A stretch of DNA of 50,433 nucleotides, from positions 1 to 50,433 of the forward strand of contig JBAYJS010000001.1 of NCBI GenBank assembly GCA_041664985.1. The letters are read 5' to 3'. A program made the translations under genes and the position numbers. Below are positions 9,747 to 44,568 of the stretch, one piece after another; positions within the stretch are counted from its first letter, which is position 1, and each line of letters begins with the position of its first letter. Origin of the DNA: Candidatus Buchananbacteria bacterium. GTDB taxonomy: Bacteria; Patescibacteriota; Patescibacteriia; Buchananbacterales; UBA6539. The notes beneath the pieces are model-generated. The model did no database searches. It saw nothing but the letters and a program-made list of their open reading frames with translations, and was not told the origin of the DNA.

Positions 9747-9780
9747 TTTATTTAGGATTATATTTTTAAAAATAAAAAAA

Positions 9781-9815
9781 AGAATTACCATTGTTGGGTT
9801 GTAATTCTTTTTTTA
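9781..9815 (+). terminator. Intrinsic terminator after gpmI copy 2
   Basis: AGAATTAC(9781-9788)/GTAATTCT(9801-9808) 8-bp stem followed by T7. Confidence 0.8.
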
Positions 9816-9911
9816 GTTTGTATTACCGGAACAGTTTAATTAAAGTAAAATAAAGTCGTAATATTTACGGCTATTTTTTGTCTAAGGTAAGTTGTTATTT
9901 TGAATTTTCAT

Positions 9912-9940
9912 TTGACATAAACAGCAAGATATTCTATGCT
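9912..9940 (+). promoter_or_regulatory. Sigma-70-type promoter of GC-rich cassette A
   Basis: TTGACA (9912-9917), 17 nt, TATGCT (9935-9940). Confidence 0.55.
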
Positions 9941-9985
9941 ATATTGTTAGTTATTTATTAATATATTTCTACGGTTACCTCTAAT

Positions 9986-10090
9986 TTTGCCATGGCAGAA
10001 AGCCCATTATTATTAGTGGATTATCTGCTGTGGCAAACCCAAGCCCGGCCCTCAAATAGCCAAGTCGGCGTTTCCGCATTGGGCGGAAAC
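9986..10090 (+). promoter_or_regulatory. Structured 5' leader of cassette A (two hairpins upstream of the SD)
   Basis: Hairpin 1 pairs TTTGCCATGGCAG (9986-9998) with CTGCTGTGGCAAA (10025-10037); two of the pairs are G-U wobbles that work only on the + strand RNA. Hairpin 2 is GTTTCCGC-ATTGG-GCGGAAAC (10070-10090), abutting AAGGAGG (10091-10097). A second AGGAG (10102-10106) lies 7 nt before the ATG. Confidence 0.55.
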
Positions 10091-10113
10091 AAGGAGGCGG
10101 CAGGAGATGGAAT

Positions 10114-10725
10114 ATGAAGACGTTGAATTGGAAAGAAGTCGGACGGTTTTTGTCGGTAGTTCAAAATTTGTATGCAGTTATTCATTATGCGTTCTCGGGT
10201 GCAGGAGTGGGACTCGAGATCATCGAGGTCGACGAGAACACCATCCGCGTCAATCTTGACGCACCGCCCACGCTACCGTTTAACGGAGCAATGGTGAAAA
10301 CCAACAGGAAGGGCGGCTGGGTCACTCTGCAAAAGCGAGCCGACGGACTGTATCAGGATGGCCATAAGTTCAGCCTGTATCGGTCCGAATACCAGAAGAA
10401 CGGCCAGGTTATCGGAGGTTATGATCTTGGCAACGAAGTGGTAAACCTTCCGGTCGTGCATCCCAACATTGAGGACGCGCTCCTGAAATATCCTCACCTC
10501 ATTCCCGAGAAATGGAAGAAAGATGAAAATGGCAATACCATTTACATTTACTTCTGGGCTGTCACATTCAGTGATCGGGACGGCCGTGTCTGCGTTCGCT
10601 GTATGTGCTTCGACGACGACGGTTGGCGCCGGGACTGCGTCAGGCTGGACGGCAGCGACTTCGGCGGCAGAGGCCCGGCGGCGGTCCTCACAGGTAACCT
10701 AAGTCCTTCGGACTTAAGAACTTAG
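10114..10725 (+). CDS. Cassette A: hypothetical 203-aa protein, GC-rich, Cys/Trp/Asp-rich C-terminus; no family recognised
   Basis: Long ORF in a visibly GC-rich stretch with C/G-ending codons (atc gag gtc gac gag aac acc atc cgc). AGGAG lies 7 nt upstream of the ATG. R/G/D-rich composition differs from the K/I/N-rich neighbours. Confidence 0.75.
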   Translation: MKTLNWKEVGRFLSVVQNLYAVIHYAFSGAGVGLEIIEVDENTIRVNLDAPPTLPFNGAMVKTNRKGGWVTLQKRADGLYQDGHKFSLYRSEYQKNGQVIGGYDLGNEVVNLPVVHPNIEDALLKYPHLIPEKWKKDENGNTIYIYFWAVTFSDRDGRVCVRCMCFDDDGWRRDCVRLDGSDFGGRGPAAVLTGNLSPSDLRT

Positions 10726-10770
10726 ACCTTGACTTTTGGTCTCAGTGCTTAGTCCTTGGATATGTAACTC

Positions 10771-10819
10771 ATCGACTCGCGTTGGTTCTCATAGACTGGC
10801 GCGGGTCGATTTCTTTTTA
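10771..10819 (+). terminator. Intrinsic terminator of cassette A
   Basis: ATCGACTCGCG (10771-10781) pairs with CGCGGGTCGAT (10800-10810), 11 bp including one U-G wobble, followed by TTCTTTTT. Confidence 0.7.
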
Positions 10820-10827
10820 CCCCCCCC
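10820..10827. repeat. Homopolymeric C8 tract
   Basis: ttac cccccccc gtt, read directly. It lies between the cassette A terminator and the start of the glycosyltransferase gene. Confidence 0.9.
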
Positions 10828-10890
10828 GTTAGATGTTTTAGTGGGAGTTAGCAGCTTGCCAAAACTGATTTTTTGTGGTTAAATAAGGGC

Positions 10891-22341: not shown

Positions 22342-22377
22342 AAAAAAAGAAGACCGGAGTTAGTGAGACCGGTCTTT
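22342..22377 (-). terminator. Intrinsic terminator of cassette B (may also stop proS from the other side)
   Basis: On the minus strand, AAGACCGG...CCGGTCTT stem (22349-22357/22369-22377) followed by CTTCTTTTTTTA. Confidence 0.7.
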
Positions 22378-22615
22378 AGGCGACAGCTTTCAGGTCGTGG
22401 CGAAATGCTTTTTCGCTTCCTTGTGGCCGAAGCCAAAGGATGCTGCCGTGGCAGCATGCCGCGAGAAGCGGTTTGTCGTTGAGGTCTTTTGGCACCCAGA
22501 GGCCAAGGCCGCCAGCGCATTTGTTCGGTCCGGTTACTATCCGTCCAGACCGGTTGCCTGCGCCGCTTCGTTTTTCGCAAATCCTGCGAGACTTTCTGCC
22601 AGTGCCGTTTTTCAT
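22376..22615 (-). CDS. Cassette B: candidate 79-aa basic, Cys-containing protein; a structured ncRNA is not excluded
   Basis: ATG at 22615 with GGAGG (22632-22628) 12 nt upstream. Codons are strongly C-ending (GGC, AAC, UGC, GAC, CUC, CAC). The UAA stop abuts the terminator hairpin. Caveat: four overlapping ORFs in different frames are open here. Confidence 0.4.
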   Translation of the reverse strand: MKNGTGRKSRRICEKRSGAGNRSGRIVTGPNKCAGGLGLWVPKDLNDKPLLAACCHGSILWLRPQGSEKAFRHDLKAVA

Positions 22616-22700
22616 AAAGAACGAATTCCTCCGTCGGGTTGGTTTATGCCTTTTTCTGCCTTTTTGATTGCCACCCGATTAGCAATCATAATTAAAAATA

Positions 22701-22729
22701 AATATACTAGATAATATCCATTTTGTCAA
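22701..22729 (-). promoter_or_regulatory. Sigma-70-type promoter of cassette B
   Basis: Minus strand: TTGACA (22729-22724), 17 nt, TATATT (22706-22701). Confidence 0.6.
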
Positions 22730-42516: not shown

Positions 42517-43071
42517 TTAATATTTCAAATTATAACTGGCTAAAATTTTGTATTCCGGGCCAATTGAACTTAACTGACTTGCCATTAGTTCAATGCTGGT
42601 GACTGGAATTTCCAATTTTGGCGGGTCAAAATTATCCGGTTTGAAAATGATTGGGCTTTTAACCCGAGCTAAAGTCAAGTGCGGCGTCCACGGCCGATTT
42701 TCGGTTTTGATGCCAATTTTATTTAGTTCCTCCCCTACTTTGTTTTGCAAAAGGCTAAGACTTTCATTGCCGATTTGTTGGCCGGATAAATAAATAATTT
42801 TTGGCTCATTTAAATTGGGAAAAGCGCTAATTTTATCGGTTAAAAGTTTAGCGGTTTTAAAATCTTTGACTTGATTTTCTAAAATATCCTTAACCGCTTC
42901 AATCTGTGAATCACTTAAATCCCCTAAAAAATGTAAAGTCAGATGGGCGGTTTTGGTCTGAACACCAGTGACGGAATTTTTATAATATTTTTTTAGCTTT
43001 AAAGTCAGATCGTCAATTTCTTTGACGGCAGCTGGCAAAAGATTAATGGCAATAAAACAGCGCTTGGACAT
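42517..43071 (-). CDS. thpR: RNA 2',3'-cyclic phosphodiesterase (2H family, ThpR/LigT)
   Basis: Two HxT motifs: HLTLHFLG and HLTLARV. 184 aa. Confidence 0.88.
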   Translation of the reverse strand: MSKRCFIAINLLPAAVKEIDDLTLKLKKYYKNSVTGVQTKTAHLTLHFLGDLSDSQIEAVKDILENQVKDFKTAKLLTDKISAFPNLNEPKIIYLSGQQIGNESLSLLQNKVGEELNKIGIKTENRPWTPHLTLARVKSPIIFKPDNFDPPKLEIPVTSIELMASQLSSIGPEYKILASYNLKY

Positions 43072-43119
43072 AGTAATATTTTAGCAGATTTTTTTAATAA
43101 TTTCCAGTATTTTGAAGAT

Positions 43120-43152
43120 AAAAAAAAGACCTTACTAATACTACGTAAGGTC
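43120..43152 (-). terminator. Intrinsic terminator of cassette G
   Basis: Minus strand: GACCTTAC/GTAAGGTC 8-bp stem (43152-43145/43135-43128) followed by T8. Confidence 0.8.
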
Positions 43153-43162
43153 GCCAATGAAC

Positions 43163-43720
43163 TTAATCGCCACCTCCAAGGTGCATCAAAATGCGGACGC
43201 ATTTTTGGGGGTTGCGGTTGTACGCTGCCAAGAAATAGCACCTTAGCCACGTATCGTCGCCACAAACTGTTGGCCAGTAAGCTCCTGGAACCTTGCTGTG
43301 GCATTCGATCTCCGCTTCGGTCATGTCCCTGACCGAGCTAGGATCGACTAAGTAAGAGTCCCAGCCCCCGTTCCAAAGGATCGGGGCGAACTGGGCTTGG
43401 CCCAAAAACATGCTGATCCGAGCCCGGCAAACGTCCTGATTGGCTGGCTCCATGATGCCAAATGCCCATCCCCAAAGATATTCTGGGGAGCATTTCGTCC
43501 TGTCGGGGACGAAAATGTCCTCTTCTAGTCCAAAGACTGTAGAGCGGGCATAGGCAAACCGGAAGCCGGCAAGATACTTTTCCAGGTCTCGGTTCCTAAT
43601 CTTTTGGGCCAGTTTGGCGCGCTCTTTTGTCGCGCCTTGGCCGGGGCCAAACTTTTGGTCCAGCGCCGCCAACCGTTGCTCGTAAGTTCTGCCTACATTT
43701 GTCTCTCCCTGTTGGGCCAT
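43163..43720 (-). CDS. Cassette G: hypothetical 185-aa protein, Trp/Cys-rich; no family recognised
   Basis: GC-rich ORF. GGAGG (43732-43728) lies 7 nt before the ATG. The leader has nested hairpins: GACAGGA/TCCTGTC (43741-43747/43783-43789) and GCAATTAG-loop-CTAATTGC (43754-43774). Confidence 0.75.
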   Translation of the reverse strand: MAQQGETNVGRTYEQRLAALDQKFGPGQGATKERAKLAQKIRNRDLEKYLAGFRFAYARSTVFGLEEDIFVPDRTKCSPEYLWGWAFGIMEPANQDVCRARISMFLGQAQFAPILWNGGWDSYLVDPSSVRDMTEAEIECHSKVPGAYWPTVCGDDTWLRCYFLAAYNRNPQKCVRILMHLGGGD

Positions 43721-43813
43721 CGCTTTTCCTCCTATCGTTAGACAGGAGAATCAGCAATTAGCCAATCTAATTGCACATTTCATCCTGTCATAGTGAATTG
43801 AAAAGAGCTTTGT

Positions 43814-43842
43814 AATATATACTATAATTATGTTTTTGTCAA
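43814..43842 (-). promoter_or_regulatory. Sigma-70-type promoter of cassette G
   Basis: Minus strand: TTGACA (43842-43837), 17 nt, TATATT (43819-43814). Confidence 0.6.
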
Positions 43843-43850
43843 GTTATAAT

Positions 43851-43886
43851 AAAAAAAAGACCCTTGGTTTAAATTCCCGGGTCTTT
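43851..43886 (-). terminator. Intrinsic terminator of cassette H
   Basis: Minus strand: AAAGACCC...GGGTCTTT stem (43886-43879/43863-43856) running into a T-run (reverse complement of the A-run at 43851-43858). Confidence 0.65.
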
Positions 43887-43909
43887 GTCCGAATGATTTT
43901 GATTGTTGG

Positions 43910-44341
43910 CTATATGTCTAAAGCCTCAAAAACGGCGGCCTTTTTCTCCTTTGTGGAGATGTTTTTAAGAGAGGTTTTAAAATCAACATCTCTTATGACC
44001 TGGCCGGTAACAGCGAGTAGTTCAAGGGCCTGTTTGAGATCTGAGTAATTCTTAGACAACACTGCCTCTCCGGCTCGTCGCGCGACTTGGAATCGTACAT
44101 CCCTTTTGGCGTGGGCCTGTATGGTTCGGAAATCTTCCCAAAGAATTTTCTCGCCCCGACGAGTCTTAATGGTGCGGGCCTCAACTGGGTTCAAGAGTTG
44201 AATGTAACGGCCTTTAGTCTGGCCTTGCTTTCCTAAGGCTGAATCTACTCCAAGTAGTCGCTTCTGGCTAAACCAAACGGCGGTTACTTGTACAGACCCA
44301 ATCTTTCCCCGCCTTTGAAGGTGCGATACTTTAGTTGACAT
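43910..44341 (-). CDS. Cassette H: hypothetical 143-aa basic protein; no family recognised
   Basis: GGAGG (44354-44350) lies 8 nt before the ATG at 44341. The N-terminal 41 codons of the longer track ORF are AT-rich promoter sequence. Confidence 0.7.
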   Translation of the reverse strand: MSTKVSHLQRRGKIGSVQVTAVWFSQKRLLGVDSALGKQGQTKGRYIQLLNPVEARTIKTRRGEKILWEDFRTIQAHAKRDVRFQVARRAGEAVLSKNYSDLKQALELLAVTGQVIRDVDFKTSLKNISTKEKKAAVFEALDI

Positions 44342-44429
44342 GGCTGTATCCTCCTGATTTAAAGGTTTCTGCCATTTGTCCTGTTGCTGCCCAGTGCAGT
44401 GACGAATCGGACGTTGTTTGTCATAATAA

Positions 44430-44458
44430 TTTATATAACAAAAAAATATTTTTAGCAA
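44430..44458 (-). promoter_or_regulatory. Candidate promoter of cassette H
   Basis: Minus strand: TTGCTA (44458-44453), 17 nt, TATAAA (44435-44430). Confidence 0.45.
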
Positions 44459-44568
44459 CAGCAAAAAATAAAAAAAGTTACGGTCTTAAATTATTACCAA
44501 GATGCTTTGAAAGTATTATATAAAAAAACTTATGATAATTACAAAATTGTAGTATAATAATTGTATAT

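Follow-up and report, generated by a model that had tools for sequence, protein, structure and literature searches.

A GC-rich cassette between proS and mreB in a Candidatus Buchananbacteria genome, a possible diverged relative of a slot-specific small-protein family

Between proS and mreB, in the window analysed here (50,433 nucleotides of a Candidatus Buchananbacteria contig), lies cassette B, a GC-rich promoter-to-terminator unit of ~390 bases on the minus strand. We put forward, with confidence that reaches about halfway, that this cassette is an accessory gene for a small protein, related in shortened and strongly diverged form to a family of small genes that occupies the same slot in sister genera (hereafter, the slot family). 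It would then be a self-contained accessory gene, with a strong sigma-70 promoter, a leader of ~78 nt, a Shine-Dalgarno (SD) sequence, a 79-codon open reading frame and a terminator, and its product, whose translation we infer, would be a small and very basic protein (P0001), in which the Arg/Lys/Gly-rich N-terminal half may bind nucleic acid and the C-terminal part may form a small three-stranded beta unit around a conserved cysteine.

A previous sequence-only reading had described the promoter, leader hairpin, GGAGG, ATG, 79-codon frame, stop codon and terminator on the minus strand, and all of these elements are indeed at the positions it gave. The sigma-70-type promoter (22701-22729) consists of TTGACA (22729-22724), a 17-nt spacer and TATATT (22706-22701), with 11 of 12 consensus matches, in a surrounding kilobase that holds six promoter-like sites (1.7 expected). 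From the presumed start site, the leader (22616-22694, minus strand) can form two mutually exclusive hairpins: the one already noted at 22678-22634 (UCGGGUGG/CCAACCCGA, pairing 22678-22671 with 22642-34), which can be read directly, and a competing 9-bp hairpin at 22688-22665 (UGAUUGCUA/UGGCAAUCA), which is part of the minimum-energy fold of the transcript, a fold in which GGAGG and AUG are both partly paired. The GGAGG motif (22628-22632) precedes the ATG at 22615 by 12 nt, a spacing as long as had been stated. The open reading frame (22376-22615) ends in a TAA (22378-22376) abutting the hairpin of the intrinsic terminator (22342-22376), whose 8-bp stem, AAGACCGG (22376-22369) with CCGGUCUU (22357-22350), encloses an 11-nt loop and is followed by C and U7 (22348-22342), the unit ending at 22342. 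Counting the overlapping frames also gave the four of 75-105 aa that had been claimed (81 and 79 aa on the minus strand, 105 and 75 aa on the plus strand), so that four of the six frames are open, the 105-aa one being a typical shadow ORF, antisense to the 79-aa frame and in codon register with it. The GC content of the segment is 58-62%, against 39% for the 1.1-Mb genome.

The order proS then mreB is conserved throughout the family, with a gap of 0-100 bp in most genomes. mreB is part of an mreB-mreC-mreD-mrdA operon, and the cassette lies antisense to it, in a variable slot behind proS. In three sister genera (represented by G018, G016 and G002) this slot contains inserts of 440-590 bp, each with a small minus-strand gene. 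The promoter of each such gene has TTGACA, its SD is placed at 7-9 nt and its terminator belongs to the AAGACCGG..CCGGTCTT type; a hairpin of the same type as the cassette terminator closes the slot in G018, G002, G016, G017 and G006. The encoded proteins (P0005 in G018, P0006/P0008 in G016 and P0007 in G002) and two further members from public data (P0012 from SRR29243436 and P0013 from an ENA metagenome, the latter bridging the subgroups) have 98-107 aa and no Pfam, NCBIfam-type name, PHROG or PADLOC entry. The proteins of the three genera are mutually homologous (E 2e-6 for P0005 against P0006). Divergence from mreB is seen directly for G018, G016 and G002, and for P0012 and P0013 the known neighbourhood is the convergent ProRS side. 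Public gene finders call the members as genes, the codon model favours their reading frame and their GC content by codon position is 0.56-0.63/0.40-0.44/0.48-0.60; the slot family is clearly real and protein-coding.

Other genomes of the family have different contents at this position. The slot of G017 (L027) holds an 820-bp insert with long direct repeats and an unrelated, acidic, Pro-rich ORF of 73 aa, and that of G006 (L023) holds the terminator hairpin only. In G001, which belongs to the same genus as the present species, one terminator arm (AACCGGTCT) is left inside the 23-bp spacer (L015), suggesting deletion of an ancestral unit. Separately, the ProRS of G015 (L031/L032, contig C8:186261-187958) matches the ProRS of the present genome in two pieces, residues 1-240 and 241-410, which are ~450 nt apart in a single open frame of 571 aa; the G015 protein therefore has an inserted domain of ~150 residues that the latter protein does not have.

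The cassette resembles the slot-family genes in several respects: it is located between proS and mreB, in the same slot and strand, convergent with proS, with its own TTGACA promoter, SD, GC-rich small ORF and AAGACCGG..CCGGTCTT terminator, and P0001 shares the basic Gly/Lys/Arg-rich N-terminal half of the family. Its C-terminal part may correspond to the family's C-terminal module, in which P-[IL]-x-x-A-x-C-[NHT], with an invariant alanine and cysteine, precedes hydrophobic strands. The cassette also differs, since P0001 has 79 rather than 98-107 aa, a higher GC content and a flat distribution of GC by codon position, and does not contain the N-terminal motif of the family (a hydrophobic strand and LPGG[KR]VK..RGGKxAEKG, profile positions 1-35). 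This motif is absent from every frame of the insert; we had considered a frameshifted relic, which was rejected, as the motif was not found in another frame.

The sole segment with detectable similarity to the slot family (G018, G016 and G002) comprises codons 38-63 (GLWVPKDLNDKPLLAACCHGSILWLR; 22427-22504, minus strand). Aligned by hhalign with a three-member profile, residues 38-63 scored 28.3 (P 1.5e-4), and with a five-member profile the score went down to 23.1 (P 1e-3), while 300 shuffles of P0001 gave a mean of 11.0 (sd 2.2, maximum 22.2) and the other five frames of the insert 7-13. BLASTP of P0001 against P0005 returned E 5e-4 over 20 residues and a second, collinear N-terminal segment with a non-significant E of 1.2, which, if genuine, would mean that P0001 has lost ~24 residues from the variable central part. 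A HMMER search of the genome with the slot-family profile did not detect P0001 at E ≤ 10^-2 (0.01). Compared with P0005, P0001 ranked third among the 10,109 ORFs of the genome, and a spurious antisense ORF scored higher (27.3 vs 21.6 bits), so that the match with P0005 owes its significance solely to the choice of the locus beforehand. Among the six best matches listed for each of the other four family members, P0001 did not appear. Codon-position identities in the aligned segment (13, 17 and 8 of 26) are coding-like; with an alignment built from amino acids, however, they do not count as independent evidence. The similarity between P0001 and the slot family is weak, specific to one frame and confined to 26 C-terminal residues.

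P0001 is basic (net charge of about +11), with cysteine residues at positions 13, 33, 54 and 55 and histidine residues at positions 56 and 73, and its tryptic fragments include LLAACCHGSILWLR-type peptides. AlphaFold2 models had pLDDT values of 54.6 for P0001 and 38.9 for the slot family, both too poor for a fold search; in the low-confidence models of P0001 and P0005 there are three C-terminal beta strands each, with the conserved cysteine in the first. The suggestion of a metal-binding protein is not supported, since a search for CxxC or CxxH pairs of the zinc-ribbon type found no CxxC pair in P0001 and the slot family has a single invariant cysteine. Nucleic-acid binding, the other function that had been suggested, may follow from the very basic Arg/Lys/Gly-rich N-terminal half. 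Of the protein-or-RNA alternative left by the sequence-only reading, the protein branch is the better supported, by the frame-specific similarity to the slot family, and the RNA branch gained no support.

The distribution of the cassette is narrow. Searches with P0001 in Pfam, PADLOC and PHROG found no family, a k-mer search of 5.8 billion protein clusters no homologue, and an exhaustive phmmer search of 1.84 billion representatives a single match, to a repeat protein, judged spurious. Scans of metagenome, genome and viral contigs retrieved no homologue either; one match, straddling two genes of an alphaproteobacterial metagenome-assembled genome, was discarded as a pattern-seeded chance match. 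Noise was all that was obtained from 400 genomes of the class, and from a protein atlas search, in which scores did not exceed 0.80. As for DNA, the cassette is single-copy in its own genome and has no match in 60 relatives, phages or plasmids, and G001, with only 23 bp between proS and mreB, has no match to it elsewhere. Judging from these searches, the cassette seems to be species-specific. A mobile element was also considered and rejected, as neither terminal repeats nor a target duplication could be made out convincingly and the repeats present are AT-rich 75% ones.

The reading that comes next, which we regard as unlikely, is that the cassette is non-functional DNA, either the decayed remnant of a slot gene whose N-terminal part was lost or foreign GC-rich DNA of recent acquisition, in which the frame is open only through the scarcity of stop codons in such a composition. 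With four of six frames open, the openness of one carries little weight, and of random sequences matched in composition, 53% have an ORF of at least 79 codons in one of the six frames. Four ORFs of at least 75 aa occur in 0.4% of them. An ATG-initiated ORF of at least 79 codons on the same strand behind an SD-like motif occurs in 0.3%; this layout, in which the cassette ORF takes up the whole stretch that begins right behind GGAGG and ends at the terminator, supports the coding reading, and its rarity goes against non-functional DNA. Codon statistics are ambiguous: GC by codon position is flat in the P0001 frame (0.59/0.54/0.57), and in the codon model it ranks at about the 15th-20th percentile among windows that truly code (as estimated from printed percentiles), with a slightly better score for the antisense model. 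Two gene-calling runs skipped the 79-aa ORF, and the gene calls on an independent contig, identical to our own without any sequence variation, list no gene at the cassette. The missing N-terminal motif and the species-specific occurrence fit non-functional DNA as well, as does the loss of the whole unit except one terminator arm in G001, which indicates that the slot tolerates loss, and the location of all GC-rich islands of the window in segments that are not shared with G001. Nevertheless, the promoter, SD, ATG, stop codon and terminator are intact and correctly ordered, and the GC content, still 60% in a genome of 39% GC and above that of the sister-genus genes, shows no drift towards AT, which speaks against prolonged neutral decay.

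The composition of the remaining genome is also relevant for the reading of the cassette as a small-protein gene. There are 124 islands with at least 56% GC (76 kb, about 7% of the genome), embedded in AT-rich contigs; the majority carry long ORFs that look clearly coding, with about 0.60/0.42/0.63 GC by codon position, and those without a convincing ORF are mostly tRNA or rRNA genes. Initiation signals divide the genes into two classes: an SD-like motif precedes 7% of the AT-type ORFs of at least 200 aa (n = 515; background 4%) and 60% of the GC-type ORFs (n = 58, at least 52% GC). Since the SD marks the GC-type class, the canonical CCUCC anti-SD is kept at the 3' end of the 16S rRNA (contig C15) and the cassette is of GC type by composition, these data support the coding reading. 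In the window, every GC-rich island is in a segment without blastn match to the collinear G001 contig, which, together with the SD-led class, places cassette B in a flexible, GC-rich and SD-led part of the genome. The idea that GC-rich islands in AT-rich genomes point to non-coding RNAs, on which the sequence-only reading had relied, fails here, as the 124 islands are mostly protein genes with the codon-position pattern and SD.

Other GC-rich segments were observed in the same survey. Positions 9747-10865 (cassette A) and 42731-44567 of the window are GC-rich and have no counterpart in the collinear contig of G001; a coding signature, but no Pfam family, was found for the 203-aa ORF of cassette A (0.57/0.39/0.63 GC by codon position) and for a 184-aa ORF at 43163-43717. 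Elsewhere in the genome, on the minus strand of contig C5 (15499-16064; L039:100-665), there is a second orphan GC-rich unit of ~520 nt, with a TTGCCA-17-TATATT promoter, a hairpin and U-run terminator but without a convincing ORF; Rfam gives no match to it, and its sole DNA match among 19 family genomes is a 38-nt stretch in G014.

It is improbable, in our assessment, that the cassette is instead a new structured or dual-function RNA of ~350 nt, whose helices would do the work and whose ORF would be incidental or secondary. Dual-function small RNAs that also encode a small protein include SgrS/SgrT and RNAIII/delta-haemolysin. The cassette may be likened to them as a promoter-to-terminator transcript of a few hundred nucleotides with a small ORF and stable helices, but it has no known target, Hfq-type module or conserved seed, and no sequence or Rfam relationship with them. 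Its high GC content and its stable hairpins, one of them a stem with a C(UUCG)G tetraloop, would suit a structured RNA, as would the fold of the whole transcript, terminator included, with z = -2.79. Without the terminator, however, the 263-nt core reaches z = -1.69 on the minus strand, hardly better than the -1.06 of the plus strand, and the description of the transcript as packed with helices loses its force, since core folding is near chance; the many local helices are about what a sequence of 55-60% GC gives by chance. Rfam 15 gave no match in the whole window at gathering scores, and at E ≤ 10 only four chance-level matches in the cassette region (13-20 bits, against cut-offs of 40-70), so that the Rfam scan that had been proposed as a check identified no known RNA family at the cassette. 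The lack of DNA conservation in the 60 relatives and the absence of the cassette from a genome of the same genus also speak against an RNA.

The observation most favourable to an RNA is a perfect 7-bp hairpin inside the ORF (22440-22457, minus strand; AUGCUGC-CACG-GCAGCAU over codons 53-59), which spans the conserved cysteine codon. In the same codon register, the G018 homologue has UUUUUGC-AACG-GCAAAAA, and the G018 and SRR29243436 homologues both keep a perfect 7-bp hairpin with three pairs changed on both sides. In a gapless alignment of five sequences, 88.6% of the cells pair, against 73% in shuffles (none of 500 reaches the observed value) and 40-57% when the alignment is slid; four pairs change on both sides across the five sequences, one of them appearing as GC, UA, CG and AU, and the wobble pairs fit the sense strand only. 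These compensatory changes are a hint of an RNA signal that may be embedded in the ORF. Against this, the structure was derived from the cassette's own sequence and the five sequences amount to effectively four lineages, G016 and G002 keep just five of the seven pairs, with internal mismatches, a codon-aligned alifold analysis of the C-terminal region found nothing beyond a trivial stem, and the slot family itself codes for protein. The third-position GC content of the slot family stays high (0.48-0.60) despite AT-rich hosts, which would agree with selection on the RNA. That the selected element is the RNA and not (only) the protein, with the in-ORF hairpin as a functional signal, seems to us doubtful. 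In that case, the hairpin would serve in processing, pausing or attenuation, or would form the core of a dual-function RNA, and the slot cassettes would be GC-rich, SD-led transcripts kept in otherwise SD-less, AT-rich genomes.

A divergent housekeeping RNA (RNase P RNA, tmRNA, SRP RNA or 6S RNA) missed by Rfam is nearly refuted: the length of ~330 nt and the GC-richness are in the range of RNase P RNA and tmRNA, and neither SRP RNA nor 6S RNA was found anywhere in the genome, but the cassette, being single-copy, without DNA match in 60 relatives and replaced by a 23-bp spacer in G001, is excluded by its distribution, as a housekeeping RNA would be conserved in close relatives as the sole copy of its kind and would not be missing from a genome of the same genus. 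The individual candidates were also rejected. Like bacterial RNase P RNA type A (RF00010), the cassette is GC-rich and of suitable length, and its GGCAGAAAGUC string recalls the P4 region, but there is no match to RF00010 at E ≤ 10 and the genuine RNase P RNA gene is on contig C23 (218.9 bits). The genuine tmRNA gene is on contig C8 (126.9 bits), and ARAGORN found nothing. As for SRP RNA, none is expected, given that the SRP proteins could not be detected either.

This last point is an observation in its own right. In the present genome (G000), which is 91.6% complete and in which SecY was found at 358 bits, we detected no SRP RNA (RF00169, RF01854), Ffh M domain (PF02978), SRP54-type GTPase (PF00448) or TIGR00959 match, and a motif scan of the six-frame translation found no protein with GxxGxGKTT...DTAGR or TKxDG..[KR]GG. 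RF00169 was found in none of 20 family genomes searched, the present one included, PF02978 in none of the 20 family genomes nor of 101 genomes of a phylum sample, and PF00448 gave just P-loop-level matches (up to 29 bits) in 81 genomes of the class, closed single-contig ones included; the search controls were matched in 14 of 14 genomes. Genuine loss, extreme divergence or a blind spot in the first look of the search could each explain the missing components.

The position of the cassette may also matter for its neighbour. The ATG of mreB (22740, plus strand) is not preceded by an SD and is 10 nt from the cassette -35 element on the opposite strand, so that the cassette promoter must overlap the promoter region of mreB, the region from which mreB has to be driven when the insert parts it from proS. 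On the plus strand, mreB has just two promoter-like sites (22664-22692 and 22679-22708, each with 9 of 12 matches), and both overlap the cassette promoter and leader, an arrangement of divergent, overlapping promoters in which the cassette promoter could interfere with mreB transcription.

Taken alone, the cassette has little import, as yet another orphan unit with a small gene in the flexible portion of a small genome, and the gene classes with and without SD and the undetected SRP may deserve more attention. It does provide a caution, that GC-rich islands in this genome mostly mark accessory SD-led protein genes and not non-coding RNAs, and a possible example of an insertion that parts mreB from proS and sets a strong divergent promoter atop the mreB start region. 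As a putative relative of the slot genes, it also gives access to an uncharacterised family of small proteins linked with the proS-mreB slot.
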